A DNA stretch of 64,000 nt from Carpediemonas membranifera BICM (taxonomy: Eukaryota; Protista; Fornicata): NCBI GenBank assembly GCA_019828565.1, contig JAHDYR010000046.1, forward strand, positions 1 through 64,000. Direction: 5' to 3'. Made by a program: the position numbers and the translations under genes. The notes beneath the pieces are model-generated. The model was given only the letters and a program-made list of their open reading frames with translations. It had not been told where the DNA came from and made no database searches. This document shows positions 16,862-47,945 of the stretch, one piece after another. Position 1 is the stretch's first letter. The number at the start of each line of letters is the position of its first letter.

Positions 16862-16933
16862 TGCAAACAAACTCTTCGAAGTATATCGAGCCTTTTATAG
16901 TCATCGGGTTCAGGCTTAACCATTCTCTGGCCT

Positions 16934-18264: not shown

Positions 18265-18269
18265 AATTT

Positions 18270-22019: not shown

Positions 22020-22025
22020 CTGCAT
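18722..22025 (-). CDS. RT + CCHC + restriction-like endonuclease (two 1-nt homopolymer indels relative to copy 2)
   Basis: PGPSG, RPVAIGEVLRR, QFG, LDMSNAY, GIHQGDPLSP, YQDD, LP..GGLG, CPIC..H..C, RHD, RMD..D..K. Confidence 0.9.
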
Positions 22026-25186: not shown

Positions 25187-25215
25187 CCGCCATCGCGAAC
25201 GGGTTGATGGGAATA

Positions 25216-25797
25216 TTAGGAGCGGGCCCGGCGGCCGACGCTGCTGGAGCCCTGCTCCTGAAAATTCCGACGCTTACGCTTGCCCTTAGTCTTGGCCTTA
25301 GCGAGGATCGTCTCGATCTCCATCTCAGACTTCGGGGGCGTGGCTCGCAGGGCTGCAGTGGCGTAGTCACAGACGTTGTCGTCGTAGTCGTCCTTGAGGA
25401 GAAGGACCTTGAACCGGCTCAGGAGACGGAGCAGTAGATCGTTCACGTCGAGTGAGTGCGGGTCCGCGGTCGTCAGGAGACGCATGATCTCGCGTAGGAA
25501 CTTGGCTTCGTCGCGGGGCCCGTACCTCTTGGGGAGCTCCAAATCGAACAAGAAGGACGGAAAGCCTTGGAAGGTTCCCTGGGTTGCTTGCTCATCGGTT
25601 TCTAGCTCGTACTCTTCTTGTTCTACCTCCCTCTGGATGGATCTTTCCTCGATGTTCTCCATCTTCGTTTTCATGAACTCCAATATGGCAGTTACGTTGT
25701 TGGTAAACTTTCGGAACTCTTCCTGGGATACAGGAGGTTCTGCGGACGTGCCCGATGTGCCTTCGGGCATTCGAAATTCTGATGCCATAAACTGCAC
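25216..25797 (-). CDS. gag: Gag-like ORF1 of element D
   Basis: Upstream of pol; ELPKR..EAKFLR..LLLKDD matches element E ELPTKR..EAKWLR..LDLKDD. Confidence 0.75.
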   Translation of the reverse strand: MQFMASEFRMPEGTSGTSAEPPVSQEEFRKFTNNVTAILEFMKTKMENIEERSIQREVEQEEYELETDEQATQGTFQGFPSFLFDLELPKRYGPRDEAKFLREIMRLLTTADPHSLDVNDLLLRLLSRFKVLLLKDDYDDNVCDYATAALRATPPKSEMEIETILAKAKTKGKRKRRNFQEQGSSSVGRRARS

Positions 25798-26118
25798 GTT
25801 TCCGTGCGCCCTCTCGGGCGTCTCAGCACCCCGGGTGCCAATGGGCTCGAGTGGTGCTCGATGGCGCTCTCGCGGCTTACTGCGTTAAACGGCGTAAAGG
25901 AACACGGTTTGCGTTCACTTTCAGCAGCAGCGCGCATCTGAGCACCAAGGCTCGATTTTGCGCAATTTCACGCATCCACTCGCACAAAACGTACCAAAAC
26001 TCCTTGAAAGGAGCTACTTCTCCGCAAAAGACAACGAAAGTAACCAAAGTGAGATCAAAACAGCGAAATGTTGTGGTATTCCCGTTCTTACTCACTCACA
26101 ATGTCCTGCCCAGCAGCA

Positions 26119-26177
26119 CATGCTGTTTTTTCTGGTACTTTAACCGGGACTTAAAGTCCCGGAATAAGTCCCGGAAT
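26119..26177 (+). repeat. Left TIR
   Basis: CATGCTG...CCGGGACTTAAAGTCCCGGAATAAGTCCCGGAAT. Confidence 0.92.
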
Positions 26178-27136
26178 ACATGAAAAAAGGACGATTGCAA
26201 GAAAAAATGAACGCGCTCAAACAATTAAACTACAGCGTATTACGCCTTGCACTTGCACAAGGCATCGTTTAGACATCCGTACAACATGCTGAAGACCTTC
26301 ACTCGCGAAGTCAGTGGCATCGCACAAACTCTCGTCGAAAAACTGTCTCATGGTTCATCTAGGGTCGGGATAGACTGCCGTGCCTCCCCCACTGGTCCAG
26401 TATGCCGAGATAAAATTTCCTGGGTGCGTAAAGATGCGACTTTTGGGAATTGCTCCCAAAGAAGTTTGCTTTTGCTCGCCAACAAAGAAGGCCGAAAGCA
26501 AGTGAGAACATCTGTGTCACATAACAACCTTTGTTCTGCATCAAATAGCAGCAAGATTGCATACGGCATCGAGTATTCTCGAGAAAACACTCAAAACTTT
26601 GCCTGGCAAACGAAAAACGATCCTAAAAGCTAATTTACCTCCAATGTCTCCAAAAAGTGAGCCGCATGATGTGTATTTCTATGATCTTTGTCTTTCACCT
26701 TCAGTTCTTCTTCAAATCATCCATACGCGGCATATCAAGCATTCTCGTCGTTTGGTCAATTCTGGCAAATCAACAAAAGGTATCCATCGGCTCAGAAGAG
26801 GCTGTGGTGGTAGCCTCGGTCCCGCTTACACCCCCGTGCGTGCCTTGTGATGAAGAAAACTTGTGATATGGCCGGAATGCACTTTATGACAAACGAATGA
26901 AGCGGGCCGAGTTTATCGCCGAAATCAAGCAAATGCGCGTTAAGCTGAGTCACTTGACTGAAATTGATGACTATTACGCCATTGCCGACGACGTTACTAA
27001 GAATTACCTGACAGTTGCCTCAAATTTCTTACTGAAAGCTGTTCTTCGCTCGCAATAGACGTAATTGACTGTAGATTGGTGAAGATAGTGTAAACATAAA
27101 GAACCCTTTATATACATACTCCGATTATCCATCTAT

Positions 27137-29701: not shown

Positions 29702-29832
29702 TGCTTCAATAGCAATAGGACAAATTTACAAAGTAAATACACAAATGTGCTGATGTAGGGCATGGTGGCGGATCTGGCGCTGGTGGCGGACGTGGAGACA
29801 CTGGGGGTGCTCCACAACCACGTCCACTGCAA

Positions 29833-30444
29833 GGGTGACTCATGTAGAGTCGCCCGAAAAGCAGAAGCATGCGGACAACACAATAGAGGATGATTCAGAG
29901 ATCGAGACAAGTGGTAAGAGGGTGAGGACTGAGTAAATGGATTGCAAATGAGTCTTTTTAATGTCTCACCACCTGTTTGGGCCTCAGCGCTGTCGTTCAG
30001 GCCAATCCACGTTTGTGGATCCGTGCATTTTATGGCTTATCGACCGGACATCTCCTGAACTGAGCGCCAGGGGGCGGAGGTGGCGTTGGCGTGGGGCGTG
30101 GAGGCGCTGGGGGCGGGGGTGGCGTTGATATTGGGCAATTACATAAAGTGCACGGTGCTTGGAATTTCATTCCAACCTCAAAATGGCGGGAAAGCATTAT
30201 TGGAAGGAACTAGTGGCAGCTATGCGGTTCTTTATACTGCAAAAGCAACCAGCTGTCGTCAAAAGCGCGCCATCTACCATCAATAACCAACATCTGCGTT
30301 GCACTCCACTGTTCTCGGTCGTTAATGCACAAAATCACTAAACAACATCAAAAGGACTGTTCATACGTTATTAAACATTGCTTGCTACTTCTGTTTCATC
30401 TTATTGTCGTTTACAGCTGTGTTGTCCTCAACAAATGCCAAGAC
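29833..30444 (+). repeat. Inter-cargo spacer R1 (includes a copy of the 3' end of the 37516 gene)
   Basis: Near-identical to the reverse complements of R2-R4. Confidence 0.92.
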
Positions 30445-30534
30445 GGAGGCAACGCTGTCCGGGCCATCTGTGTCCATGACACTCACGCCTGTTCTCATTT
30501 CACAGATGAAAGACAGCCGAACACATCAAACCAT

Positions 30535-31160
30535 TTACTTCCTCCCCTTCCTTGTCTTCGGCACACTCTCTTCACCAGTGCCATCTGACAGAAGCTCCGC
30601 CACGAGATACACCGTGGCATGATTACCCGTAATGACAATGACCTTCTCGTGGCCCGTCTCCCTGATGGCATCACTGAGTTGAGTCAGACTTCTGAAATCC
30701 TGAGGGTAGACCCTTCCGTTGTCGTAAACAGTCGCTGAGTTGACTATGCGACCATCTTCCTCTTCTCTGCGCTGCAGGACCATGACCTTCTCCTTCTCGA
30801 GATGCGTCCAAGCCGAGATAGCAGTGCCTGTCAGCCAGCCCTGGCCGTTGAACAGCTCGGAAGGGTCCCACCATGTGCCCCTGACCTGGCCCTCGGCCTT
30901 TTTGGCCATGGATTCCTCGGCGTGTTCTCTCAGATGATTTTTTTGAAATGTTTGATTCGATTCTTACCCAGTACTTGGCCGTGCTTAATGTCGTTGAGCG
31001 AATGAGCGATGCAGGCTCCGTCACGGTGAATCTCCTTGGCAGGGCAGGTCAGGATCCTGTCGATCGCGGTTTGTACGTCGAAGACCAGCTCAGGCTCATG
31101 CTCGTTGTCACTGATCGACACGACTGACATATTGTCGTCATCTTCCGGCCCACGCACCAC
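30535..31160 (-). CDS. Second OTU-like cysteine protease domain (frameshift at a T-run near 30940)
   Basis: HRDGACIAHSL ... ITGNHATVY. Confidence 0.6.
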
Positions 31161-31295
31161 CGTGTCAGGCTCCTCCTCGTCTGCCTACTTACCCTTCTTC
31201 TCCTCTGTCTCCACCTCCTTGTCCTCCTTCTTCTCCGTCTCAGCCTTCTCCTAAACGTACACAGTCGAACGCACTACAAAGGCATATCCAAATCT

Positions 31296-32945
31296 TTATT
31301 CAATCTCAACGACCTCGCACTTCTTCTGGTACAGCGTGGCGTGAGCCGGATCGCCTTCGATGACAATAGCGAAATTATCTGTCAACCCCCACAAGTCTGC
31401 ATCGGGTGCAAGCATGGTGGTGCCATCAAACAGGTATAAGATGGCGGAGATGCCTTGCATGCCGTTGTATCCGTCGTATGACTGGACAACAAGGATGTTC
31501 CGCTTCTGCTTCCTTGCCCAGACTCGGATGGCGTTCGAGTTATAGTAGCCGGAGTCCGGATCTGTCAGGCTACGCTCCGTGACATTCTTCTTAGACCAGT
31601 ACTTGGCCTTCACTGACTGGCAGAGGCCACGCTGCCACTTTTCGAAGTCGCCATCAACTCGGCCACCCAACTCAATGGCTTGGAGACAATATGCAACGCA
31701 GTTGCCGTCACTCTTGACATGAATCGCGGTACAGTTAGTCGTGAGAGCCTCCACGTTGATGCACGTCTGCACCGCGGCCTCAGAGGTGATGCGAGTCTGA
31801 GTCTCCGGCTCAGTCTGGATGCAGGCGTCGCATGTGTTCACCGTCTCCTCTTCTGCCTCACCCCTCTTCTCCTTCGCCTCCTCCTGCTCCTCCTCTGTCT
31901 CCTCCTCTGAGTCCTCAGGCCTGGCCTTCTCGGGCGTGATGAAGAGGGCCTTGCGCTTCACAGACATGGAGGCCTCGGGCTCGTTCGTAGCGCGTCGGGG
32001 GCAGGAAGTCCTGGAGAGCGTGCCAGACTGTGGCGGCATGGGGCTGGCGGCGAACGAAACATCGCAGGAAGCAAGGTACCCAACGTCATGCTCATGATGG
32101 ATACGCCTGCACTCAAGAAAATGGTCTCTTCTCTCGTCAGTCACCTGCTTCTTCAGCCGCTCGACCTGCTCCTTGAGAGATTGGATCTCCGTCTTCTGAG
32201 CAGAGATCAGACTGGCTGTCACGCGACGTACGACTCGAGCTTCAGCAGGGAGTCTCGTGGTCAACGTCTTCTCGCCAGTAAGCGCCTGAGTATCGATCTG
32301 GTCGGCCCAGAGATAGCGCTGAAGCACGTGGTCGGCGTGATCCTCGCCGGGACAGGGGGCGTTATCCCTGCGGGCCCGCACACGACGAGTACCGCAGATC
32401 TCATCGTACACTCGCTCCCATACCACGTCATACTTGGACTCGCGCGTGTATTCCATCTCCTTTTCCAACTCCTTTCGGTCTTCCTCATCGGCCAGCTTCA
32501 TCATCTGAACCCGAGTACAATCCCTGATGTCCTCGTCCTCCTCCTTCGCGAGTTCACACTCAAGCCTAGCGTTTGTCTTCATTCTAGCCTCACGAATGCT
32601 CTTCTTCACCCGAATACGCGCGCTCTCCACCTCGCCGTCGTACAGGTGCGTGAAGGTATCCCCGCCGAGGACCTGCTTCAGTGTTTTCTTGTGTTCCCCT
32701 GTGACCCTTTCACCCTCATTCAATTTCATCGTCGCCATAAACTGCGCCTTAAGGTCCTTCTTCATATCTTCCGTCTCCTGGCGCGTGAGGCGGAAGAACG
32801 TGGCAATACGCTTGAGATTAACACCTGTGTAAACAATTTCGCTCAGTAACGTACGTTCCTTGATCACAGTAGCGAGTAAATCGCGCCTAGGCAGCAAAAA
32901 GCGCGCGAAGGACGTCGCATTTGCCTTTAGCGCTTGCAGCTGCAT
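31296..32945 (-). CDS. Coiled-coil protein with C-terminal OTU-like deubiquitinase domain
   Basis: KSDGNCVAYCL ... GDPAHATLY; homolog at 62883-63935. Confidence 0.72.
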   Translation of the reverse strand: MQLQALKANATSFARFLLPRRDLLATVIKERTLLSEIVYTGVNLKRIATFFRLTRQETEDMKKDLKAQFMATMKLNEGERVTGEHKKTLKQVLGGDTFTHLYDGEVESARIRVKKSIREARMKTNARLECELAKEEDEDIRDCTRVQMMKLADEEDRKELEKEMEYTRESKYDVVWERVYDEICGTRRVRARRDNAPCPGEDHADHVLQRYLWADQIDTQALTGEKTLTTRLPAEARVVRRVTASLISAQKTEIQSLKEQVERLKKQVTDERRDHFLECRRIHHEHDVGYLASCDVSFAASPMPPQSGTLSRTSCPRRATNEPEASMSVKRKALFITPEKARPEDSEEETEEEQEEAKEKRGEAEEETVNTCDACIQTEPETQTRITSEAAVQTCINVEALTTNCTAIHVKSDGNCVAYCLQAIELGGRVDGDFEKWQRGLCQSVKAKYWSKKNVTERSLTDPDSGYYNSNAIRVWARKQKRNILVVQSYDGYNGMQGISAILYLFDGTTMLAPDADLWGLTDNFAIVIEGDPAHATLYQKKCEVVEIE

Positions 32946-33910
32946 TGATCTTGGTCATTAGCTCCTTCTTATCGAACTCAGTGGCTTCTTCCAGCCAAGT
33001 GAACAAGTCTAGCATCGTATATCGCCAAGAGACGTTAAATGGTTACTAAAAGTTTATGTATATCGCCTGCGGCTTGTAAGCACTCACACCGTGACTACCA
33101 CCAGCCGTCATCACACCCCTAGCCCTACCCACACGTCCATTCTCGCCGATGCTGATTAAATCGTCCGGCCAGCGAGCCGGGGCCTTTCGCAAATTTAATA
33201 TGGCCAAGAGACGTTATCTGCGGCTAAAACGAGCCCCATATAACCCCCTATGAAGTTATACGGAGAAATCATCGCCGATTTTCACGTTTCGGCGAGCTCC
33301 GGCCAAGGGGTCCAGGAGTCAGCTTTTGGGGGAAGGTCTGTGGTGCTATAACGTACCTCGGGACGTACTGTGGAGGCCCCTAGAGTACTCGGTCATGGCA
33401 TGTCAGACCAAGGGTCCCTCAAATCTGGCCCCATTCAGGATGCACCCCCTAAATGTTCCGTTGCAAGCGTCTGACGGAGGTTCTCTGGATACCGACCAAG
33501 ATGGAGGTCACGTGGATCAACGGACGATAATTGCGGTATTCTGGCCATGCCTGGTACTCTCAAATCATCTATACTGCTCTGTGGTTCATTTATTGTTCAT
33601 ATCGTATGGTCCTGATGGACTTATGATGATTGATGTTGTTTAGGGATTATTGTTGCTTTAGTGATGCTCTGCGCCCGCCAACTGATGTTTCTTAGTGTTG
33701 TGTACATGCCTACTACGTTAAAGCCGCCAGTATTCTTTCTATTCTTAAGTTCGCCATTTCAATCTCGTTGCGAGCATAAAGTGCGCGAATGCGCGGGTCA
33801 GTTCCCCCGTTTTCAGCGAAGCTGATGCGACAAAACAGAGGCAAGCGAATCCTTACACCTCAGGCGTTGCCAAGAGGCCGTTGTCTGCCAGGATCTATAA
33901 GCAGTGATGA

Positions 33911-34240
33911 GATATACGGATTTCAGACTTTCTGCCTGCACGACCTCAAATGTTGACTCCCCTCGGCACCGAAAAGGCACCTATATCCATGAATACCCTC
34001 TACAGTGATGTATCCACCCGATAAATGGATTTCAAATTTGTCGGGTCTCATGATAAATGGATTTCAGACTTTCGTACTGTTGGCCATCTGAGAATTTATG
34101 AACGACCTCTAGAATATTTTGAAATGCAAGAACGTGCCTATGGCACTCTTTTGTACCCCTGAACACGGTTTGACCACTGTTTTGGGCATTTGGAGAGATT
34201 CGAATTTTTGTGCATGACGAAAGTCTGAAATCCGTATATC
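33911..34240. repeat. 330-bp segment bounded by perfect 22-bp inverted repeats
   Basis: GATATACGGATTTCAGACTTTC at 33911-33932, reverse complement at 34219-34240; partial internal copies at 34020 and 34052. Confidence 0.8.
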
Positions 34241-34262
34241 GAGGGAAGGAAGCCCGCAGGAG

Positions 34263-35471
34263 ATGGAAACAACCATGGAAGCTGTGAAGAATGCTTGGTT
34301 GTGCACCATCAGTAAGAAATCTTCCCGGAAAGCGGCTGCAAACAACCTTTCACGGTTCGTTCAATTCTTACAACGTGAGCGAGGGAGTACCGAGGACGAA
34401 GCGCTCTCCGTGATCCGGTCCGAGGAGGTTAGATCGCTTGTGCCCGGTTTTGCTGCATCATTGAACAAGGCAACCGCTGCTGTCACTCTCAGTGCCGTCA
34501 ACTCATTCCGAAACTCCGGCAGAGACAATGTCAAGCCGCTTGGGCAGTTTGAGCCTGTCGCATCGGAAGCTATTGTCCGACTAGTCTTCCCCTACAATGT
34601 GCTGGCTCTTATCATCAGCCACACGGGCATGACAGCTATTTCCGCCCGCGATATTGACATCAGTGAGCGAGCTCTTCAGCTTCCCGAAGAGCTCGCTGCC
34701 TGGATAGTATTCTCCAAGGCCTCATCCGCACTGTCTCATGTAGCGCCGAGCACCTTCTCGGAGGCTCTCAAGCAGGTCGGGCTCAGTGTCAACCAGCTTC
34801 GCTATGCGCCCCCGGTGCATGTCGATGTCAACCAGCTTAAGACGCGGGAGATTGAGAGAGAGAGACGGACTGGCAGGCCCAGAGACTTGACCAAGGTTCG
34901 GAAGGTCATTATGGACAAGCGCATCAGCCTCACCGATGATCAGTTCCGCCACCAGCTGGCAAACAGCCACCTGACGACCCTGCAGCGCCCGACGATCTTT
35001 GATCTCAACCCGGAGATCACAAGCTCTGCCGACCTGGTGCCGCCGATGCTCGATGGCTGGCTTTACAACAGGCTCAAGGCCAGAATGATCGAGCTTCACG
35101 ATACTAAGAAGAAAGAGAGGCAGAGCGAGGCTGACAAGGAGGCGGAGTTCGGCTCGCTGACTCGCGAGACAGAGATGCCAGAGGGCGAGAGAGAGGGCGA
35201 TACTGACGAGGAGGCGGTGTCCGACGAGCCAGCTTACCAGGCAGAGTGGATGCACTACGAGGTGCCAGCTCGCGAGGAGAGCGAGGAGGGCGCCTTTGGT
35301 GAGGAGGTGGACTTATGCAAGAGTGCCGATGAGGAACCAAAGATCGACCACGACGAGCATGGCGGGGAGGTGGCGGGCAGAGATGGTGATGGGGAGATTC
35401 AAGAGAATGTGATTGATGAGGAGCGCTCAGAGAGCGATACTGCCGACAGTATCGTCTTTTCCTTCATCTGA
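34263..35471 (+). CDS. Degenerate tyrosine-recombinase-like protein with acidic tail
   Basis: AANNLSRFVQFL..ATAAVTLSAVNSF (core-binding-like); LIISHTGMT (cf. TGxR); GLSVNQLRY (cf. HxLRH). Confidence 0.5.
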   Translation: METTMEAVKNAWLCTISKKSSRKAAANNLSRFVQFLQRERGSTEDEALSVIRSEEVRSLVPGFAASLNKATAAVTLSAVNSFRNSGRDNVKPLGQFEPVASEAIVRLVFPYNVLALIISHTGMTAISARDIDISERALQLPEELAAWIVFSKASSALSHVAPSTFSEALKQVGLSVNQLRYAPPVHVDVNQLKTREIERERRTGRPRDLTKVRKVIMDKRISLTDDQFRHQLANSHLTTLQRPTIFDLNPEITSSADLVPPMLDGWLYNRLKARMIELHDTKKKERQSEADKEAEFGSLTRETEMPEGEREGDTDEEAVSDEPAYQAEWMHYEVPAREESEEGAFGEEVDLCKSADEEPKIDHDEHGGEVAGRDGDGEIQENVIDEERSESDTADSIVFSFI

Positions 35472-35635
35472 CATTGTAAAGAGGAAGAGTTTATGATTGG
35501 AGCATAGCTGATGTCCATAAACACCATTCATAAGCCAGTCCTGGCTTGTTTTCCACTGCTACTTCTCTCGTTGCGACGCACAGCTAGCTGTCGCGAAATG
35601 CACTTTAAGACCGAATTTCACACAGCTACCTGTGC

Positions 35636-36941
35636 ATGGTGTTCGAGCTAGATAGCGACAAGCTGGAGCGACTTACTTCCTTACCTGGTAATAGTAGACA
35701 ATATCTGCACGACTTTGAACCTGAAAAGCTGCAGGTCGTGATCAAAGTTGATGAGCATTATGGTATGGAGGTTCCCACCCTGCTAGCGCTCAAGGACAGT
35801 CCGCATGTCCTCCCTGTCGTCGATACAGGTTTTGTCGACCGTGATCCAGCCTTCATGGCTCCTTTGGTCAACTGTACCCCCTTCGCTGGCATCTGCAAGG
35901 CTCACTCCAGCGTGCAGTTCCGCTATGTTTCGCATCTGCTGCAGGCAGTATGCTACATGCATGACCACGGGGTTGTCCATTGCGATATTAAGCCAGACAA
36001 CTTCCTCTTCAGCAAGAGTCAGAAGGGATACCTCATTGATTTTTGGGTCTGCAATGAGGAAGCCGGCTAATGGCGACGACAGGTGGGCCATACAACTGAG
36101 ATTCGCATCCGAGTATCGCGGCACCCATGGATATTTGCCCCCAGAGCTTTTCTACGAGTACCTTGTCTCGCGCTCAGTGATTCCTGCTGCACGCGACACC
36201 TCCAAGCTCGCGCGCATGACGGCAGGGGCTCTTTCCGTCACTTCTTATGTCGTGACACCTGCATCGGACATTTACTCTTGCGGTATTGTCATTATGATGC
36301 TCGTTAACGGTCTCTCTAAGTCCCCCTTTGCCGCGAAGGTGACTGACATGGGTGCAAACATGGCGCAGATCGACAACAAGAAGAAGAAGAAGATGCTGAA
36401 GCTTGGTAGCTTGCTGAACTGGTGCCAATTCTATGGTGGGCAGTTGCAGTTGTCACCTCAGGCACAGACACATTTCAAAGATTGCCTCGAGTGTGTCAAC
36501 GTGAACTCTGAGCTCCCGATTCGCGGCACCACGCCACCTACTTGTCTCAGCCTGTACGACCTGGCAATGCAGATGCTCCACTTCGACCCTGCGAAGCGTC
36601 CCACTGCTGCCGAATGTCTTGACAAGCTCAAGGTCATCATGCGCGTGCATGAATGCGTCGCCAAGCCGAGTCCGCTTCTGTTAGATGATACAGAAGAGGT
36701 CACCCTGTCTGCAGCTCAGCGAAAGAGACTGACCGACTGCTGTCAGCGAGGGTTTGAGGGTCAAGTCTTCTATCGGCGCTGCATAGTGTGTGGTAGAGAC
36801 CTTCATGGACGCGAGAACGTCAGCTGTGACACATGCCACAAGGGATACAGGCAGGTGAGCACCAATAAGTGCGCAAAAGGTGTGCGCGGAAGACTGCACA
36901 GGCAGTTTATTGCAATGATTGAGCGGACGAAAAGAGATTGA
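35636..36941 (+). CDS. Ser/Thr protein kinase with C-terminal Cys module (1-nt frameshift at DFG)
   Basis: VVIK, HCDIKPDNFL, IDF/G, GTHGYLPPE, DIYSCG, DPAKRPTA; CIVC..CDTC. Confidence 0.9.
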
Positions 36942-37055
36942 TACTTTCTGTGATGCAGGAATGAGATCAATGCTGCTGACAGGTCTCGAGATGGCAGAGG
37001 TGCTGGAGAAGAGAGAGCAGAAACAGAATCAGAAGTAAATGTCCTAAGGAGATGT

Positions 37056-37617
37056 AACAGAAGTAGCAAGCAATGTTTAATAACGTATGAACAGTCCTTT
37101 TGATGTTGTTTAGTGATTTTTGTGCATTAACGACCGAGAACAGTGGAGTGCAACGCAGATGTTGGTTATTGATGGTAGATGGCGCGCTTTTGACGACAGC
37201 TGGTTGCTTTTGCAGTATAAAGAACCGCATAGCTGCCACTAGTTCCTTCCAATAATGCTTTCCCGCCATTTTGAGGTTGGAATGAAATTCCAAGCACCGT
37301 GCACTTTATGTAATTGCCCAATATCAACGCCACCCCCGCCCCCAGCGCCTCCACGCCCCACGCCAACGCCACCTCCGCCCCCTGGCGCTCAGTTCAGGAG
37401 ATGTCCGGTCGATAAGCCATAAACTGCACGGATCCACAAACGTGGATTGGCCTGAACGACAGCGCTGAGGCCCAAACAGGTGGTGAGACATTAAAAAGAC
37501 TCATTTGCAATCCATTTACTCAGTCCTCACCCTCTTACCACTTGTCTCGATCTCTGAATCATCCTCTATTGTGTTGTCCGCATGCTTCTGCTTTTCGGGC
37601 GACTCATGGGTCACCGC
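37056..37617 (-). repeat. Inter-cargo spacer R2
   Basis: Reverse complement of R1. Confidence 0.92.
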
Positions 37618-40600
37618 CGCGGTTTGTCCGAGACCAAATGCCATTCTTGCAAACGCCATAAGGTCTGGCGGGAATGTACTGCTTGTCGTCAGAGCATTGT
37701 AGATCTCAGGACGGATATCTTTCGCCGTTGAGTAAACCATGCACAGATGACTGTGAACAATGAGGGTGCTCAAGCCCCTGACTGTATCGTTATCCTTCGG
37801 GATCATTCGGTTCTTCAGCAAGGAAGTGAAGTCGGCGAAGTGGATGATGATGACACCAATGATGTTGTGGAACTTTGACATCATGCTTTCTGTCTCACCC
37901 ATCAGTTTCAGACGCTCCACAACGTTGTTGTAGAAGGGGGTCTTCGTTATGTTAAGGCGTGTGGAAAGTGCACCTTGCTTGTTCGCCTGGACAAAGATCC
38001 TCTGCTGCTGAAGAGCCACTGAGAGCAGGGCGTCGCTGGGGGCCACGTTTTCGTTATACTTAATCTTCTGGCTTGACAAACAGTCGTAGAGACAAAGCTG
38101 GTAAGCAATCCAGGCCCGAATAACTCGGACGTTGTTCTCCTGGAATGAGTGTTCCAGCTCGTGAAGGGTCGACTCACTGGCGTTGAAACCATCCATCCCA
38201 GAGATATCGATGGTAATGGCAGAGTTTTTCGGCACGCTGCGAATCCACGTTTCAAGGCTTGTCTCTCATACTGTTAAAAACGGGGTTTCGATGCCTGAGG
38301 AAATCATGAGGAAGTCCGTTTTCACGAAAAAAAATGGTGAAAGCATTAGATTCAGTAAAATCTTTTCACCATTTTCACAAGGCGCAAGAACACGAAAGAG
38401 ATGGCACTGAACACCCCTGGATGTACAGGACATCACTATACACGCTTTCCATGCATCTGTGAGCTTCTGCATTTTTGAGACTACTGTTCGCCAAGAGAAT
38501 CACTGAGGTTGTCGATAAATGCTATCCATAAGCTACTCCTGTCTTTATTTCCGCTGCTGCTTCCCTCGTAGCGACGCACAGGTAGCTGTCGCAAAATGCA
38601 CTTTAAGACCGTATTTCGCACAGCTACCTGTGCATGGTGTTTGAGCTTGATTGAAAGGCACTGAACAATACAGGGCTACTCTGCAGGTAACAGTAAGCAA
38701 TACTTGAGCGACTTTGGGCCTCGAAAGTGGTAGGATCTCATCAATGTTTATGACCCACCCTCGCATCATCCTGATCAGAACTTCACGCTTACTCACATGC
38801 TCAAGTACTATCCATATGTCCTCCCTGTCACCGATGTAGTCGTTGTCGACCGTGTCTCAGCCTGGATACTCCTCCTGTCGACCGCACTGTCGTCTCCAAC
38901 GTCTGTTAGGTCGACCCTAGTGTCCAACTCAGTTATATTAGTCATCTAATGCAGGCTAAATTCGTCATACATGACCACGGAGTTGTTCAATGCGACTTCA
39001 AGTCTCACAATTTTCTTTTCCGCTCTGAACAGAATGTATAGGTGACTGAATATGGCTCAGCGATGGCTAGAATCACAACTAATTGTCCTCTCTGACTCTT
39101 TAAAAGCTATTCGAGTGTGTCAGATCATTCTAATCTTTCCAGTCGCGCCATAATGTTAAACAGAAAGCCCAATCTCGCGATTGAATACGCATAGTCGACG
39201 CAGAGAAGCATTGTATAGCCAAGAACGCCTTCTTGAACATGACAGTATTGTTGACGTGACTCCAACATTAGTCCTCGGATTGATATTATGTCGAGACAGG
39301 AAGATGGGAGGGATGCACCACGACTCATGAGACTAAATGTCTCCCAAACCATCTCCTAAACCATTTGATGTAGTGTGATTGAACTTGTACTGTGTTTACC
39401 TTGAAGTGCGCCCCATGTATTTTTTTTGTTTACGTATATCAACATAAATACGCCAATTCATTATCGTAAAATTGCTGGGCCCGGGTCAGCACAGTCTAAG
39501 GACCCACCATACCGCTTTTCAGGCAGAAGTAGTCTGAACTCTAATTTTGCTTTACGTATATCTCAGTAAATAGACTCGAACGATATGTAAACACCTCGCA
39601 GCAGCCATAAAGACCCAATAGCTACCCCTTGGCCGATTTTCAGCTCATTCTGCACCTGCGCTGTTTTGGCCGTTTTTCGATGGGCATCTCATCGCTCCAT
39701 TTTCGATTTTGTCAATTTGGTCCTCAGAGGACACAGATTAAATTTTTCAGTGTCCTCTGAGGACAACATTGACAGGATTGTAGCTTATCCAGAACTTGGA
39801 GGTGGCCAGAAACTGAAATCGCTGAAAAGCTCAGAGACGTCGTTATATCATCTATAACGGCATCTCTGAGCTTTTGGGCGCACGGTTTCATCATGACGTG
39901 GAGATCGATGCTTGTGAAAATGAAGAATCGACTAGGAGAGCTCTACGCTTGCATGCAGCCTTCTATTAGGTTGTTGATGTTGGTTATATGCTTCTTTTTC
40001 GTTCTCGATGTATCTGGATGGAAGTTCTTTCACAAACTGCATTTGGCTGAATTGATGTTGGTTATTGATGATAAAGGCACCAGAATGGCTCATATGCATG
40101 CTATAAACCCGTTCTGTGCCGTTGGAATAGCGTTATTCGATAGTCGGTAGCACTTGTTGTTCGTTTCACTCGTTGCAATCATTAAAGTGCACAACGAGAA
40201 CTGATAAATCCTGGCCCATCTGTGCATGTGACAGCAACAAGGGGTCTCGGGGTAAGAGCAGGAACAAGAATTGGGAACAGCGAATTCCAGGCTGCCTGTC
40301 AACGAGCTAAGAACTGACCCCAGCCAGGTGAAACAAATGGAACTTCTCAGAATGTCATAATATTCGCTGCTGTATGAGACTCACTGCCTCCCCTGCTCAC
40401 CCAATTAGCGATATAGGGATTTAGGGATGTGCAGTGCAAGGACCGTGATAAATGCGGACGCAGAAGAGGCAGACCTAGCACTTGTGGGGAACACTCACAC
40501 CCCCGCTAAATCACACGCAAGGTCACCGGAGAAGACACAAGCCTCATAAAGTCCACAGGTATGAACTTTTGAGGTCATAACTCTATGCTCTATGGCGGGT

Positions 40601-42424
40601 GCAATTGTGATAGGAAGTGCGTTGAATGCAAGTTAGAGGTCTAATGCGCTCTAGAGTCCTTCTGGTCATCATTCAGCGGATGAGGTAGCGCCCAGGCCGG
40701 GTGGAGAGTGGCGAAAATGGTCATTCACGAGCTTTGGCAGTTACCCGCGTCTCTCGGCTGTGGGATAATGGGATACCGGACCTGTCCATGACCGAACACC
40801 AATCGACCTAAAATTGTATTTAATGCGAAAAATTTTTTACGATGGTGTCTCTGACCTCCTGCCATGATACAGGTGCGAGAGGTACAAAGTTACTTTTTTT
40901 GATGTTTTTCTCCCGAGACCATTTTGTGCCACCAAGAAAAAAAAAGTGGCACAAATGAGTTTGAAGTTTGTGTGCTGCAGAACTACATTCTGAGGTGTTC
41001 AGGGGATGTGTATAGTGTCTAATAAAGTACCCAGTGCAAACCACCAGCGGCATGATCATCACAATAGCGATTACGAACTGTGAAATTTCACATTTTCACA
41101 TTTCACGGAATTTTCACGAAACGCGATTACTGCGATTGCGACATCTTGGAGCTGAAAAGCGGCAGAAATGCCTGTAACAAGGATCTATAACATATCTTGA
41201 AGTTAGACTGCTGATAGCTAGTCTCGTTGTCGAGTTCTGAGCTTGCACAAAAAAGTTGAATCTGAATTTCACGGTCAATATTGACCTAGATCGCGAAAGT
41301 GAAGGTGTAAGAAAAGGCTAACTCACCAACGAGAGCAGCTAGAGGAAAATGGTAAAGGGTTTTGCAATCTGCATCCCCGGAGGAGTTCAGTTTCACACAG
41401 ATGAGGATTTGAGAAAGCTCCCCTTTCACAACGTCTTTGGGCACCTTCGACGGCGTCGATAATGATGAAGCATACCATTAGCCCTTATAGGCTATGATAC
41501 ACATCTACTGTTGACGAAATGTTCTGCAATGTTGTCATCGACGAGATATGGTACCACATTTTTTATATCTCAAGATTGATGAAGTGCCCCATCTAGCCGA
41601 GCATATCCGGGTGCTGTATGAAGGTCATATAGCACCCCAGTATGGTTGGTTAGTTGGGGCACTTCACCAATCCCGAGATCGAGTGATTCAATCAAAAGAA
41701 CCCAGCGACTGAGACATCGCTGAGAGCTGAAACCGAGAGAGGATGTATAAACAGTAGTACTGAGCTTGCTTACAGACCAGCTTGTCATTACGACCACTTT
41801 TCACCAACTACATAAAATGCGTTTCCCTATTTACTCGCCGATGAGCAAAGTAATGCTCGACAAAGATGTAAGATATGCGTTATTCATCTATAAAGCACCT
41901 GCTGTAGTATTTAAATCGGCTTCAGGGGTTCTAGTTTCGGATATCGCCATTTTCACTTCCTCACGACTTCCTCAGGCATCGAAACCCCGTTTTTAACAGT
42001 ATGCTTCCTGGCGGCTGAGGTTCTTGAGTGGTACGATGACCTGCTGTTGTGTCGGGGCAGGCGTACCAGCGCGTCGCGGCGCCAGCTGTCTCAGCTTCTT
42101 TGTCTGCACCTTCTTCTTCGCAGACTTGGTGGTCTTGGGCTGAAGCTTGGATGCAGGCTTGGCGGTTTCTCCTACCGCGACAGGCACATCTTCAATGGGC
42201 TCTTGGGGAATCTCCGCCAGGAGATCTAGCTCTTTCATGATAGACGGGCTGTCGGCGAAGAGATCGCGCAAGAAACGGTCGAATGCTCTGTCAAACTCAC
42301 CAGAAATGACCGCGGCGATCTTTCGGGCCTGTCTGTTGTTTCTTTCTGATGGGAAAGGGCCACAAGTAAGCTCAATAGCAGCAATAAGCTGCTGCAAATG
42401 CAGTTCTGACTCCAGAGTGTCCAT
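37516..42424 (-). CDS. 389-aa orphan protein split by the nested transposon
   Basis: Removing 38267-42003 and one CT joins ..KNLSRQE|ETSLETWIRSVPKNSAIT.. in frame (421+749 nt). Confidence 0.8.
38267..42003. mobile_element. Nested non-autonomous CMC-like element (3,737 bp)
   Basis: ~49-bp TIR CATACTGTTAAAAACGGGGTTTCGATGCCTGAGGAA..; 2-bp TSD CT. Confidence 0.92.
38520..39060 (+). pseudogene. Decayed copy of the cargo kinase and its upstream region
   Basis: 38549-38650 resembles 35551-35652; HDHGVVQCDFKSHNFLF remnant near 38970-39020. Confidence 0.75.
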
Positions 42425-42560
42425 TGCTGCATAAGCTGCACATGAATCCAGCCTGGTCGATTCGTTCACGCGGCAGACAAGAAGAGAGACGTGCCAGGCA
42501 TGGCACTCTCTCTGGCAATGGCAAGTCTTCAACGGGAAGCCGCGAACGCCTCGTTGATCT

Positions 42561-43073
42561 GTCTTGGCATTTGTTGAGGACAACACAGCTGTAAACGACA
42601 ATAAGATGAAACAGAAGTAGCAAGCAATGTTTAATAACGTATGAACAGTCCTTTTGATGTTGTTTAGTGATTTTTGTGCATTAACGACCGAGAACAGTGG
42701 AGTGCAACGCAGATGTTGGTTATTGATGGTAGATGGCGCGCTTTTGACGACAGCTGGTTGCTTTTGCAGTATAAAGAACCGCATAGCTGCCACTAGTTCC
42801 TTCCAATAATGCTTTCCCGCCATTTTGAGGTTGGAATGAAATTCCAAGCACCGTGCACTTTATGTAATTGCCCAATATCAACGCCACCCCCGCCCCCAGC
42901 GCCTCCACGCCCCACGCCAACGCCACCTCCGCCCCCCTGGCGCTCAGTTCAGGAGATGTCCGGTCGATAAGCCATAAACTGCACGGATCCACAAACGTGG
43001 ATTGGCCTGAACGACAGCGCTGAGGCCCAAACAGGTGGTGAGACATTAAAAAGACTCATTTGCAATCCATTTA
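42561..43073 (-). repeat. Inter-cargo spacer R3
   Basis: Direct repeat of R2. Confidence 0.92.
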
Positions 43074-43092
43074 ACCACATCACTCTCTCTGA

Positions 43093-43695
43093 TCATTCAT
43101 ATTTGAAGGTTAGGGCATTAACAACCATGTGATCCTTCGCGCTGGAGTTAAGACGATAAATGATGTAGTAGGTAAACTCTTCTTCATCGATCTTCTCGTC
43201 AACAAGCGCCTTATACCAAACCATGAACTCATTGGGAACGGTGACCATCACGAAGACAATCTTGCGTTCAATATCAGAGACACGGAAGGGGAAGTGCTGA
43301 GTCGCAAATTCAGCTAGCGTCCTGCCGCTACAGGAAAGGGCGATCTTGCCCCAATGCAGGAACTCCAAGTGACGCTGCATGACGCTTGATGCTCGCTCAA
43401 TGCTCGATACATGCTCGACACCACGAGAGGAAGATGATATTGTTCTCGTGATGCTGTCCGTACCCGAGCACCGCACAACTCCGTCTCCATAGCTCTCCTG
43501 CAGAGCAGCCGTTTTCTCGTTGTAAATCGTCGCCGCGTTCTCTGTAGTTAGCCAGAACATCACAAATCGTTCCACACAGGAATCCTCGATCATGTTGATG
43601 CATTGACTTGCGGTCTCTATCTTACCACGCTTTATAGTGGTGTATAGAGCCGCAAGATGCTCAAATGCGATCCACTGTTGGCTGTCTGTCGTCAT
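43093..43695 (-). CDS. Orphan 200-aa protein, divergent from the SET gene
   Basis: Clean ATG ORF between R3 and R4; no recognised motif. Confidence 0.55.
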   Translation of the reverse strand: MTTDSQQWIAFEHLAALYTTIKRGKIETASQCINMIEDSCVERFVMFWLTTENAATIYNEKTAALQESYGDGVVRCSGTDSITRTISSSSRGVEHVSSIERASSVMQRHLEFLHWGKIALSCSGRTLAEFATQHFPFRVSDIERKIVFVMVTVPNEFMVWYKALVDEKIDEEEFTYYIIYRLNSSAKDHMVVNALTFKYE

Positions 43696-43749
43696 CGTTC
43701 AAATCCGATGTGCAGGTTATGGAACAGGGAGCGAGTTTCGCAATTGTGA

Positions 43750-44478
43750 GTGACAACAGGAATGCACACTATCATGATCCCGCATGTTGCTACAGATGGA
43801 TCAGAGGAAGAGGAGAACATTACAATGTCTTTAGATGATTACGAGAAATTGATGTCTCTGAAAAAGCTCTCTAAGGAGGATAGAGAGCAGTTCCTCGGTG
43901 CAGGTGGCAAGAAGGCGGACTCTGAGCATGCAGGCGAAGAACTACTTGAGAACGGCATCGCTAAGACCGCAGATGGGATCCTTCTTGAGCCACAGAAGTC
44001 CCTCATGGGCACCGATGTTGGCCAAGGGGTCATCTCGTCGCACCGAATCGACGTCGGTTCTCTGGTCGGTGTCTATGCTGGTGAGGTCATCCATGAGCGC
44101 CAGTCAAATGGTAACTACGACTACCTCATCGATGGAACCCAGTTTTGCGTCAGCGCCAACCCTGAAACAATCGGTGTCCATCGCATCAACGACAACCCGG
44201 TCGTGACCAATGTGCAGTGCCACATTGGTCACGTTCTTGTTCGTGTTGCTGCTGATGAGACGAAACTGCTCCCGCTTCTCTTCTTCGTGTGCGTTCGAAC
44301 AATTCACCCCTACGAATATTTATCACTCGAGTACGACCATCACTACTGGGCCCAAGGAGAGTGGGAGCGACTTCCGCTGTTCGTTGTGTCGTTCAAGCGC
44401 CTTGCCCAGAACGCATCCCTCCATGGTATATCTTCTGCCCGAGAGACGGCGCGTCAGTACCTGCGCCTGGCTGAATAG
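43750..44478 (+). CDS. SET-domain lysine methyltransferase-like protein
   Basis: GQGVIS..I..G..VGVYAGEVI, HRIND (cf. RFINH), EYLSLEY..YW. Confidence 0.82.
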   Translation: MTTGMHTIMIPHVATDGSEEEENITMSLDDYEKLMSLKKLSKEDREQFLGAGGKKADSEHAGEELLENGIAKTADGILLEPQKSLMGTDVGQGVISSHRIDVGSLVGVYAGEVIHERQSNGNYDYLIDGTQFCVSANPETIGVHRINDNPVVTNVQCHIGHVLVRVAADETKLLPLLFFVCVRTIHPYEYLSLEYDHHYWAQGEWERLPLFVVSFKRLAQNASLHGISSARETARQYLRLAE

Positions 44479-44511
44479 GTAAACGGACGTCTATAGTATC
44501 TATCTTTTGTT

Positions 44512-44892
44512 CCTTTCTGATGTTGTTTAGTGATTTTTGTGCATTAACGACCGAGAACAGTGGAGTGTAACGCAGATGTTGGTTATTGATGGTAGATGGC
44601 GCGCTTTTGACGACAGCTGGTTGCTTTTGCAGTATAAAGAACCGCATAGCTGCCACTAGTTCCTTCCAATAATGCTTTCCCGCCATTTTGAGGTTGGAAT
44701 GAAATTCCAAGCACCGTGCACTTTATGTAATTGCCCAATATCAACGCCACCCCCGCCCCCCAGCGCCTCCACGCCCCACGCCAACGCCACCTCCGCCCCC
44801 TGGCGCTCAGTTCAGGAGATGTCCGGTCGATAAGCCATAAACTGCACGGATCCACAAACGTGGATTGGCCTGAACGACAGCGCTGAGGCCCA
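44512..44892 (-). repeat. Inter-cargo spacer R4 (core ~380 bp)
   Basis: Direct repeat of R2/R3. Confidence 0.92.
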
Positions 44893-44971
44893 GACATGCA
44901 CATATACATTCATTTATTCCTGTCTCGCTCTCTTGCCTGTCTGATCGCGACGTTTGACCCACTCAAATGCC

Positions 44972-45928
44972 TCATCTGTGAGGGTAGACAGAGACGTCGC
45001 GAGTATTCCCAGTCCTAACCTTCCGAATCAACGTTCGGCAAGGATCTTTGGGTGTCGTCGTTGAGGTACGACGGCAAGCCCACTCTGAGGTCTCGCATGA
45101 GCCCCCGCACACGATGCAACGTCCTGACAGGACAAGCGGGGGGTCATGCGTTCTGGCCATAGCTAGCTGGTCCACCTGGCTAGCAGTCAGTGTGCGGGAC
45201 ATGAGCGTACCGCGCGTCTTGCCCGTGTCTTCGGGCCTGGGCCTCGGCTCATCCAGGTCTCCGACGTCCGAAGTCGTCATCGTTGCCTGCTCCAAAGTGG
45301 TGGGCACCGGCTGAGACCTGACACCTGGCAGCCTGAGCATGGTCTTACGGCCGCCGCTACGCAGCCTCTCAATCTCATCCTCAAGAATGCTGACCTTCTT
45401 CGTCAGAGCATGATGTTCACTTGTCGCAACGAGCGACACTGGCGACTTAAGCAGCGCGATGAACGCCCTGACGTTATCGTGCAATGGAACCGAGAAGGCC
45501 TGGGCCAAGCTCTCGACCAGCTCCAGGACCTTGGGCAGGGTGTCGGGCTCAAGCTCATTGTGAGCTGCGCGGTTCCGGTACTCAACGAGATCACGAATGA
45601 TCTTGGCATGGGCTTTGTTGTACGCCGCTCGATTGGACATCTCACGAAGGATTCTTGATGAATCCACGTCCTGTTCGAGCTCTTTGCCGAGGAGGTCCTT
45701 CTCGGTGCTATTGGGCTTGCACCCGGGGTTAAATGCAGGCGAGGCCAAGATCTTCCGCATCCAAGGGACCATCATGGCGAGCAGCTGAAGAACTCGCGCA
45801 TTATCGCCAAGGATGCGGAGCTGCTCATCGTTCCATGGTGAAATGAACAGGTGATGATCTTGTCGAGCGGATGATTGCCCTTTGAGAGGTGCTTGGCGAT
45901 GCTTAGCGCGATATCGGTCCATCCACAA
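44972..45928 (-). CDS. HEPN-like (Swt1-type) protein with coiled coil and C-terminal Cys module
   Basis: Helical region with YRNRAAH (RxxxxH); RCIVCG. Confidence 0.6.
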   Translation of the reverse strand: MWMDRYRAKHRQAPLKGQSSARQDHHLFISPWNDEQLRILGDNARVLQLLAMMVPWMRKILASPAFNPGCKPNSTEKDLLGKELEQDVDSSRILREMSNRAAYNKAHAKIIRDLVEYRNRAAHNELEPDTLPKVLELVESLAQAFSVPLHDNVRAFIALLKSPVSLVATSEHHALTKKVSILEDEIERLRSGGRKTMLRLPGVRSQPVPTTLEQATMTTSDVGDLDEPRPRPEDTGKTRGTLMSRTLTASQVDQLAMARTHDPPLVLSGRCIVCGGSCETSEWACRRTSTTTPKDPCRTLIRKVRTGNTRDVSVYPHR

Positions 45929-46242
45929 CTGTGGATGACGAGCAATTTAAGGTAGGTGCCGCATCAGTCAATAACCCCGTGCTATCGTGCAATAGAACAC
46001 AGTTAACACTGCTTTCCATGCGCAGCAACACAGCCTGTGGCGGAGAGACGCCCGGTATGGACGACACCAGGTGATCCACAAACGTGGATTGGCCAATTAC
46101 GTCGGCCCCTCCCATCCCGCATCCCTCAGGATACGCAAGCACAAGCTCTCTCCCTGCAGCACCTCTCTGGCGCTCTCTAAAATCGTCGTATAGCGTAAAC
46201 AGAATGTGCCGCATCAGTCATTCGTTCATTTTATTCCACTTA

Positions 46243-47431
46243 TCACTCTTGGTCATCCTCCTCATCACTCACCTCCTCGCGGATACTGACATCATCACGA
46301 GCCTCGTCATCCGCGAGTGTCAATGGCTCTGTAATAGCGCGGGCAGCGTTGGTATACTCACCGTTGAACTGTCGCTGGCCTCTCTGAATGCGAGGAAAGC
46401 AATTCACGCACACCGGAACACGACGAGAAGGACGCTTCAACATGTCAGTTCCAGTGTCAAAAACGGTGTCCGCGATATGATCCGGACAGAACCAGTTGGA
46501 ACAAAAGTAGCAGAGCATGCTGGGTCCATCCTTAATACTTCTACCACAGTCCGCTGCTTGGGTGGTCTCGGTTGGAGGTGTACGATGAAAGCACTCGTCG
46601 TTACCATTGATTGCCTTACAGTCATCGCAGATGGATATCTTCTGCTTATCGGCCCTGTTAGATGCCGGGTATGCCATTCGCTCCTCCAAGTAGCCACTGA
46701 CACAGCTATAATGGAAGTACCTCTCGCATTGTTGGCACTGCAGGGAGTTGTCGTCCTCAATCTTCAGCAGCAGATTCATCGGATCGTGACAGACCCCCAC
46801 AACACATGCGCAATGAGTTTCGTAGCTGCTGATAAGTGAAGTTGTCGAGTGCGTGGCGCCGGTTCATTCCTGTCTGGATAAGTGCCGTTGCCTGCGCCAC
46901 ACATGTGGAAAATTGGGAAGCGACTTGGTCGATGTGCGCTGCTTCCCGCTGTCTGTGTTCACTGGCCAGATTGTCACGAACAGTTACGACCGACTGAGGG
47001 GCGGGTTGAGACTGTTTCCGAGCCCTCTTGTCCTTCTTCTTCGAATAGGTCTGGAAGGGGATGCTGATGTAGCGCGAAACCGGAGGCTGCCATACCACAG
47101 TGCTAGTGGTACCTGATGCTGCCTGCAGGTTGTCCTGCAGCCTTGATAGGTTGATCTCGCCGAAGTCCTTGAGGAACACACCTTTGACCTTACCCTCGGT
47201 GTTGATCTGGTAAGACGAGGGGGCGAGTCCATCCAGAGCGTGGATAAGGGCATGACGAAGAGAACAAGCCATCGCTTGCTTCTTCTTGTAGAGAGCTCGG
47301 ATATCATCTGGCAGAATAGCCCAGCACACCTCTGAAACCGCAACAGGCATGGCTTGAGCACAATCGCGTTGAAAGTAGAATACTTCTTTTGCAATTGCAA
47401 TCAGGATTTCTCGTTTTTGGGTCTTTTCCAT
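46243..47431 (-). CDS. Tandem PHD-like zinc finger protein (frameshift near 46795)
   Basis: C(G)VC..CQQC..FHYSC..CDDC, then C..LCYFC..WFC..H..CVNC. Confidence 0.75.
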
Positions 47432-47885
47432 GATGCCTGTATGTGCACTTTAAGGTTGAAGATTGCTCACACAATTTGACTTTTTCTTTATCGAATGGGA
47501 TAAAGTTGAAGTAAATAAAGTACTATTCCGTTGCTAGGACAGCAAGGGGATGTTACAGTAGGAGTTTCAACACTTTTTGAGAGGATACCCCTCAGAGGTG
47601 ACAGTGCAACACCCGAAATTTTGTCTATACACGTCATATACAAGGTCTAATGCATCTTTGCCAACCACTTTTAGCGTTTGTATGTGTCAGACGATCGAGT
47701 TCTGAAGAGCGACTTTGGCCAAGTCATGCGACCTTATCCTGCACTGACGATACGAAAACCGATCATAAATATTTATTGAGACATCTGCATGCAGTATTAA
47801 TGTTTCCAGAGGTAGAACTAGGCTAGTAGAAGACTGTCACCCACTTTGGGGATGATCCGACGACATCGATCAAAATCAATCAAGG

Positions 47886-47945
47886 ATTCCGGGACTTGAT
47901 TCTGGGACTTTAAGTCCCGGTTAGAGTACCGGAAAACGCAGCATG
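47886..47945 (-). repeat. Right TIR
   Basis: Reverse complement of 26119-26177. Confidence 0.92.

Follow-up and report, generated by a model that had tools for sequence, protein, structure and literature searches.

The CMCT clade of DNA transposons comprises EnSpm/CACTA, Mirage, Chapaev and Transib, together with Plavaka, ESTA and Lanisha, and is described by CA..TG ends, short target site duplications (TSDs) and a transposase of RAG1-like DDE fold (PMC12730594). Fungal elements of this type are reported there to carry extra genes that pass passively between lineages, without ends of their own; in a study of TET/JBP genes the transfer is termed 'passive' and the part concerned names no mechanism. 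It is still an open question by what means the DNA transposons of eukaryotes acquire and exchange entire accessory genes. We analysed positions 1 to 64,000 of contig JAHDYR010000046.1 of Carpediemonas membranifera BICM (this whole 64-kb stretch is called the window below), in which a 21.8-kb transposon that has terminal inverted repeats (TIRs) lies at 26119–47945, with about ten cargo open reading frames (ORFs) on board. Four copies of a non-coding repeat, R, stand beside its genes, and an original prediction, made from the sequence, had taken R for the spacer of an integron-like cassette array and for a platform on which cargo is gained, lost and shuffled. The array is not an integron. On balance we favour the view that R is gene-end and regulatory sequence of the transposon family, re-copied by template switching during repair, which now serves as passive homology for the rearrangement of cargo.

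The host transposon and its relatives

The TIRs of the element (26119–26183 and 47880–47945) are 66 bp long and 88% alike; its termini, CATGCTG..CAGCATG, are of the 5′-CA..TG-3′ type of the CMCT clade. The TSD is CA (2 bp), as read against an intact retrotransposon copy at 18725–18775, the insertion target being a copy of a non-LTR (long terminal repeat) retrotransposon. This duplication, like the CT that flanks a second element nested in the first, is within the 2–5 bp expected for CMCT transposons, and for PlavakaB TSDs of 2–3 bp and ends starting with CAT are described (PMC12730594). Pfam matches show the window to be eukaryotic and full of nested retroelements, and near-identical sister proteins of the element's ORFs are on record as Carpediemonas membranifera (90% clusters, five ORFs), the 90% clusters of the SET-like and kinase ORFs having no named member.

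The transposase (27137–29701, − strand, 854 aa, hereafter P0001) was modelled with AlphaFold2 on 14 family sequences (pLDDT 72). RAG1 was the best match of the model (Foldseek E 2.4e-9; VIA Z 14.2, root-mean-square deviation 5.7, 442 aligned), further VIA matches being the P element (Z 12.1) and Transib (Z 8.2), and the Atlas clusters listed for the protein are RAG1, Transposase_21 and Plavaka. The alignment shows conserved D339, D422, H521 and E687/688/691. Relatives numbered 17 among 1.84 billion representatives, none of the 14 aligned transposases matches a Pfam family, and a search of viral contigs did not find the protein. Inspection of the alignment by eye showed neither a C(2)C motif nor an H(3-4)H one in P0001: C-x2-C is missing after D422, several homologues having a single Cys, and the position expected before the last Glu holds no more than one His. 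For this reason we keep the element out of the named lineages: it has CMCT-like termini, TSD and transposase fold, and is placed in no named CMCT lineage. The transposase lineage formed by this ORF and P0030–P0044 combines a RAG1 fold and no Pfam match with the apparent lack of the zinc-binding motifs of RAG1, Transib and CACTA.

The likeness to CMCT transposons in CA..TG ends, 2-bp TSD and RAG1-like DDE fold is accompanied by clear differences, since neither C(2)C nor H(3-4)H motif nor Pfam match is seen in its transposase, and the element carries its many cargo ORFs together with a four-copy internal repeat. In its size and as an autonomous TIR element with several ORFs, it recalls the enlarged En/Spm of Chondrus crispus (16–20 kb, 4–5 ORFs; cited in PMC6431247), which belongs to another lineage and host and for which the relevant passage of that paper mentions no repeated spacer. 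Pack-MULE, Pack-CACTA and Pack-TIR elements, attributed to gap-filling and FoSTeST, offer parallels in their ragged, microhomology-type junctions, captured gene fragments and chimeric ORFs, but they are described as mostly short and non-autonomous carriers of host gene fragments (PMC8277862), whereas the present element has an intact transposase, whole ORFs shared across its lineage and duplications of its own internal DNA. It does not belong among Pack-TYPE elements, which are non-autonomous and have identifiable host gene fragments. Literature searches, in sources other than Repbase and subscription journals, revealed no description of this transposon family or of a eukaryotic spacer-separated cargo array, and 'transpos' had no match in 10 supplement files of PMC8516963. 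A host element of 22 kb, with a RAG1-fold transposase apparently devoid of the usual zinc motifs and a cargo of kinase, SET-like, OTU-like, PHD and HEPN-like genes, seems to be undescribed in the literature covered.

Five loci of another genome, out of 523 pattern matches, encode a transposase 26–27% identical to P0001 and were used for comparison. Two of them, L001 and L004, have the right end CAGCATG in common with the element. L002 (2283–12274) carries kinase, OTU-like and SET-like ORFs among others, in other orders, and L005 (557–8261) carries two SET-like ORFs and an acetyltransferase-like ORF, with a 326-aa ORF shared by both; these cargo labels were given by eye except for the tblastn links. 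Self-comparison revealed no long dispersed spacer in L002 or L005, both of which are incomplete on the left. They hold similar cargo without a recurring spacer, and variable cargo in this lineage therefore does not need R. Cargo of chromatin and ubiquitin type seems to be typical for elements of this lineage.

Copies, boundaries and nature of R

Self-BLAST and alignment yielded four copies of R, all within the transposon, with a common core of 379 bp (29978–30356 in R1), in agreement with the ~380 bp initially proposed; between any two copies there are 1–2 substitutions and 1–3 short gaps. R1 (29834–30444, + strand) is inverted relative to the three others and consists of the tail of a 389-aa cargo gene, the core and a 3′ extension of R3 type. 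R2 (37050–37615, −) comes after the stop codon of the 389-aa gene, its other end being 109 nt away from the kinase stop, R3 (42561–43073, −) lies 20 nt after the stop of the 200-aa gene and 137 nt before the ATG of the 389-aa gene, and R4 (44511–44892, −), the shortest copy and equal to the core, is 22 nt after the TAA of the HEPN-like gene and 33 nt from the SET-like stop. The predicted 22-bp hairpin remnant is indeed an exact segment of R, at 46073–46094 (−), between the PHD and HEPN-like genes. This 22-mer occurs five times in the 64 kb, in the four R copies and at 46073–46094, with no further site at up to 4 mismatches, and was not found in a search of viral contigs. By eye, a 14-bp direct repeat (45957–45970 and 46207–46220) brackets the region that contains the remnant.

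The boundaries of R are nested and carry 3′ ends of neighbouring genes, as had been noticed from the outset. The 5′ ends fall at three places, namely within the tail of the 389-aa gene (R1), at its TAA (R3) and 44 nt further (R4), and the 3′ ends likewise fall at three. Both R1 and R2 carry the tail of the gene ending at 37516 (tblastn 94% over 36 aa), at the TAA of which R3 begins. R1 is a hybrid with an R2-type 5′ end and an R3-type 3′ end, its overlap with R3 extending ~43 nt past the 3′ end of R2. Seven of the eight R ends face a gene 3′ end, one of these being the copied tail. R showed no terminal inverted repeat, and at none of the six boundary sets did a flanking direct repeat exceed 3 nt, which bears out the earlier statement that R has no TIR or TSD and is not a miniature inverted-repeat transposable element (MITE). 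The proposed look for the spacer beyond the transposon gave no copy in the remaining 42 kb of the window. The claim that every copy lies between cargo genes stands in that all are in non-coding DNA beside genes, but the neighbour of R1 is the transposase start. A diverged copy of the G-rich tract of R (72% over 64 nt) is found at 29745–29807 (+), 44–106 nt upstream of the transposase ATG.

An assembly artefact is an unlikely source of the R copies, because their flanks differ, two of them have private substitutions and one junction, that of the 200-aa gene with R3, is spanned by a public contig of 535 nt. The two variants of this contig match the sister protein P0026, and therefore another copy of the element shares this junction. 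Two sparse public runs, with 5% of the words apiece, both gave one contig on 28500–48000 and one short partial match on 8600–28500, and their equal sizes suggest one data set. In these runs no joint of an excised circular cassette was seen. Nothing was concluded from the contig end at 43001, which a graph branch at the R4 junction would explain no less well than the end of a transcript.

Integron attC sites are bounded by RYYYAAC and GTTRRRY cores. No pair of such cores 30–150 nt apart is present on either strand in 29934–30444, and the three 5′ and three 3′ boundaries of R are at odds with a fixed crossover. Nor is the array made of co-oriented, mostly single-gene cassettes: between R3 and R4 stand two genes that diverge, and R1 points the other way. 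Of the genes that R2–R4 and the remnant were predicted to bracket (a 389-aa gene, the 200-aa and SET genes, and HEPN), the 389-aa gene is real (140 + 249 codons), and the SET and HEPN labels are tentative. Among the scanned ORFs of the element, Pfam and PHROGs revealed no integrase match. The 402-aa ORF, which to the eye resembles an integrase, has no Pfam, PHROG or PDB integrase match, was not recovered by a 7-sequence integrase profile run with filters off on 275 frames (retroelement ORFs of the window scored weakly) and aligned to integrase in hhalign with a probability of 0.3–0.7%. By eye, the catalytic first Arg, His and Tyr are not recognisable. In the Atlas, its residues 1–285 lie near integrase families (features 0.93–0.95; 7 of 30 matches with integrase Pfams) and 8 of 10 structure rows are integrase-related, one being MrpR, but the TM values of 0.26–0.32 are under the bar and the shared features, 111–139, are low. 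At most, the protein could be a dead tyrosine-recombinase fold of MrpR type. The likeness to bacterial integrons is superficial: genes are separated by a recurring non-coding hairpin repeat and the content seems to vary between copies, but R is near-identical instead of diverged, occurs in mixed orientations around a two-gene interval, and goes with no fixed crossover, attC site or active integrase.

Several tests bear on what R is. A frame that comes from within R3 and reaches into the 389-aa gene is free of stops for 133 codons (28 of 5000 shuffles), which is why R was considered to encode the 5′ part of a 522-aa gene. This was rejected on the codon score: the 87 open-frame codons of R score −0.217, lower than any of 99 coding windows and level with the median of 420 non-coding ones. 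R scores as non-coding. The motif TAAAGTGC, which is the top-ranked 8-mer (p 7e-8), has 7 sites, where 0.33 would be expected, in the 9.9 kb of non-coding DNA that the TIR elements comprise after de-duplication, 6 of these sites lying outside R, and none in the 39 kb of flanking, retroelement-rich DNA or in the 11.7 kb of element coding sequence. One site is ~15 nt upstream of the ATG of a 224-aa ORF and another ~30 nt upstream of the kinase ATG; CAACATCA is enriched likewise (6 sites versus 0.52 expected). R is likely to be a gene-end and regulatory block of the family, a role to which this motif enrichment points. Twin hairpins lie near one end of R. As a structured RNA, R was rejected, the best Rfam match being located elsewhere (E 0.74) and its fold being no better than that of shuffles (z −0.42). 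Neither a tRNA-derived head nor a poly(A) tail nor a constant end was found in R, and its identification as a MITE, a SINE (short interspersed nuclear element) or a non-autonomous Helitron, which calls for a constant end in the form of a TIR, TSD, tRNA head or fixed 3′ motif, was set aside.

The 3′ ends of the HEPN-like gene (44914–44956) and of the 389-aa gene (37516–37558) encode similar basic tails followed by TAAATG. The last 40 nt of the two genes are alike with p 0.002 versus shuffles (1 of 10 flank tests), and because a longer sister protein, P0018, is devoid of the basic tail, this suggests an older capture of one 3′ end. Six flank tests for older decayed homology at R boundaries gave p 0.04–0.55, none of which survives correction.

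Sister copies and the origin of R

Sister copies in the same species were compared as proteins, with their locus tags. Annotated copies number 12 for the HEPN-like gene, 6 for the 200-aa gene, 6 for the transposase (at least 90%), 5 for the 3′ part of the 389-aa gene, 3 each for the SET-like and 402-aa genes and 1 for the C part of the kinase; these counts are not strictly comparable, since the search reached past a gene's own cluster for just three of them, the HEPN-like, 200-aa and transposase genes. The number of genes annotated between HEPN and the 200-aa gene is 0 (tags 4385/4386), 0 (6694/6693), 1 (5082/5084) and 4 (8548/8553), to which can be added a further copy with 3 (by accession numbers, apparently on the same contig), the window having 1; the extra tags may be nested insertions. 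At tags 0916/0917, HEPN adjoins the 3′ part of the 389-aa gene, as an R4–R3 deletion would yield. Local duplicates of HEPN are present on two contigs (3793/3795 and 7055/7059), and the HEPN gene with tag 7059 is identical to the window copy at 210 of 215 positions, yet its neighbouring transposase at only 274 of 492. These tags suggest that cargo content and order vary between sister copies, as the original prediction would have it, but the two switch points that could be located are outside the spacer. In P0018 the HEPN frame is left near 45025, and in P0026 the 200-aa frame is entered at 43614; the two proteins have adjacent tags, their unique parts are absent from the window, and both switch points are in coding sequence, none in R. 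Such chimeric proteins could be gene-model artefacts.

The scheme that we favour starts from what is seen in the window, namely a 21.8-kb element with TIRs, a 2-bp duplication and its own transposase, in which the ends of a non-coding R with the family's intergenic motifs are ragged and nested, one lying within a coding tail. A break in this transposon, due to excision or to a stalled fork, would have been mended by copying from elsewhere in the element or from a sister copy, leaving tracts of 380–610 bp with variable ends, and tracts that landed just outside reading frames would have survived, since a gene that has just arrived must be given a 3′ end. Thereafter, the direct repeats R2–R4 would permit cargo to be lost through single-strand annealing or gained through unequal exchange between sisters, and the inverted pair R1/R2 would permit a flip of the 6.6-kb middle. 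No site-specific enzyme would be required, and rearrangement could occur outside R also. The hybrid R1 would be explained by a single master locus that underwent an R1/R2 inversion, or else by R3 and R2 having given a circular or tandem product. Metamonads are described as being without non-homologous end joining (NHEJ) while keeping homologous recombination, single-strand annealing as well as break-induced replication (PMC8516963), and the capture routes published for TIR elements include gap-filling and template switching with microhomology (PMC8277862). A passive recombination platform by R homology is plausible, and this much of the proposed platform may be kept, since sister copies seem to differ and the geometry permits it; a dedicated platform is not borne out, the located switches being in coding sequence.

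Several points weigh against this scheme. The sister copies were seen as proteins and tags, and these show no breakpoint in R and no deletion or inversion isomer. Only 5 of the 11 genes of the window copy have an exact protein record, and missing tags are weak evidence of absence. Four copies of one block in 17 kb exceed what random duplication would lead one to expect, the open frame from R3 into the 389-aa gene stays unexplained, and the motif from which the regulatory role was read was chosen post hoc. Finally, among the ten highest-scoring 60-nt windows of a G4Hunter scan over the 64 kb, the G tract of R provides the top four (1.70–1.77 versus 1.62 for the next), which hints at a hotspot.

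Such a hotspot would be a selected one and a platform based on homology, where the G tract forms G-quadruplexes (G4) or R-loops upon transcriptional readthrough of the upstream gene and so provokes breaks and homologous exchange, by which cargo is shuffled in a cell dependent on homologous recombination. In R2–R4, the sense strand of the upstream gene is the G-rich one, the R copies are only 1–2 substitutions apart, the HEPN-like and 389-aa genes look as if a 3′ block had been used twice, and recombination driven by RNA:DNA hybrids has been proposed for the genus (PMC8516963). We nevertheless regard this as unlikely: G4 or R-loop formation is a prediction, R is missing from the related elements L002 and L005, the located switches are outside R, and neither the R-boundary flank tests nor RNA folding departs significantly from chance. 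A bolder combination is a little less credible still, in which giant RAG1-fold transposons of fornicates have evolved a portable 3′-end module, made up of a basic tail, a stop, a twin hairpin and a G4/R-loop tract, which licenses the expression of new genes and acts as a selected hotspot where chromatin-modifying cargo is swapped between elements, with the dead recombinase-fold protein possibly bound to it; if true, this would amount to an integron counterpart in eukaryotes that works by homology. R could also be a small mobile repeat in its own right, Helitron-like and non-autonomous or SINE-like, inserted four times with neighbouring DNA in tow. Near-identical copies in both orientations, the twin hairpins near one end and the gene tail captured in R1 are what one would expect of it, but the lack of a constant end, TIR, TSD, poly(A) tail, tRNA-derived head and Rfam match, the restriction of R to the element within the window and its sharing of the host element's intergenic motifs make it improbable.

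We give equally little credence to one-off founder duplications fixed in all copies, with R inert ever since and the differences between tags due to annotation noise or nested insertions. The public contig with P0026-type alleles shows that a different copy keeps the 200-aa/R3 junction, and the annotation is incomplete; against this, gene numbers between HEPN and the 200-aa gene go up as well as down in the tags (0, 0, 1, 3, 4), two contigs have local HEPN duplicates, and a nearly identical HEPN copy stands beside a much diverged transposase. The least probable case is a true integron analogue, where the 402-aa protein, or a DIRS-type recombinase in trans, acts on the R hairpin and cassettes move as circles. 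The position of residues 1–285 near integrase families, the exact 22-bp hairpin standing alone at 46073 and the fact that a circle of R3, the 389-aa gene and R2 would contain the hybrid R1 speak for it. Against it are the low TM and shared-feature values, the failure of the database, profile and hhalign searches, the missing catalytic residues, and the lack of attC cores and of a fixed crossover, and an R1/R2 inversion accounts for the hybrid equally well. DIRS/Ngaro-like retroelements with split repeats are present in the window, at 7357–8058, 17676–17721, 22020–23052 and 51490–52164, and their ORFs, which score weakly against the integrase profile, are a possible source of tyrosine recombinase in trans.

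The transposon family is young (transposase copies are 99.5% alike), has at least 6 copies with differing cargo and resides in a lineage without NHEJ, and therefore one alignment of the assembly could show whether cargo turnover breaks at the shared repeat. Unless breakpoints fall in R, the spacer is an ordinary internal duplication.

Cargo genes and surrounding elements

The cargo begins, next to R1, with a 124-aa ORF and broken upstream frames (30535–31250, −), by eye a decayed paralogue of the 3′ part of the OTU-like gene that follows (31296–32945, −, 549 aa). The OTU-like label comes from a C-terminal motif seen by eye, with no Pfam match, and weak relatives are an ORF of L002 (E 0.005) and an ORF at 62883–63935. 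The 402-aa gene (34263–35471, +), with its weak lead to a tyrosine-recombinase-like fold and no recognisable catalytic set, is preceded by a 330-bp segment (33911–34240) that has 31-bp inverted ends, internal partial copies and no clear TSD. The protein kinase gene (35636–36941, +) is frameshifted here and matches Pkinase in both its N part (E 3e-11) and its C part (E 9e-7). The 389-aa gene (37516–42424, −) consists of two parts of a split ORF, 42005–42424 and 37516–38265, of 140 and 249 codons, which remain in frame across the nested 3.7-kb element. The 200-aa gene (43093–43695, −) belongs to no family and is divergent from the SET-like gene (43762–44478, +, 238 aa), which has no Pfam match and owes its label to similarity to the SET-like ORFs of L005 (E 6e-9) and to a motif seen by eye. 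The HEPN-like gene (44914–45922, −) encodes 335 aa in sister copies, a 1-nt shift ending it at 316 aa here; its HEPN matches are weaker than the Pfam cut-offs (E 0.01–0.03), and the UniRef name of two sister proteins is Swt1-like HEPN. For the HEPN-like and 200-aa genes, the only relatives found are near-identical family copies. At 46243–47431 (−), a 224-aa ORF and an overlapping 178-aa PHD-finger ORF are perhaps one frameshifted gene.

Two copies of a long interspersed nuclear element (LINE)-like sequence, at 12099–15561 and 55764–59230, are 99% identical in inverted orientation, with many 1-nt indels between them. Sequencing errors may be part of the reason why the kinase, 224/PHD and HEPN genes are frameshifted.

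The nested element that cuts the 389-aa gene in two (38267–42003, 3.7 kb) has TIRs with CATACTG ends and a 2-bp duplication CT. It is non-autonomous, with long hairpins at 39710–39774, 39825–39875 and 41567–41679 and a decayed 5′ fragment of a kinase gene that is 69% identical to 35512–36013. A third element, also with a CATACTG end, starts at 60811 (60811–64000) within LINE-like sequence; in it are the same intergenic motifs and an OTU-like paralogue, 87% identical in DNA over 254 bp. Outside these elements, a tRNA-Arg(ACG) is called at 18190–18265, directly beside a retroelement end at 18253.

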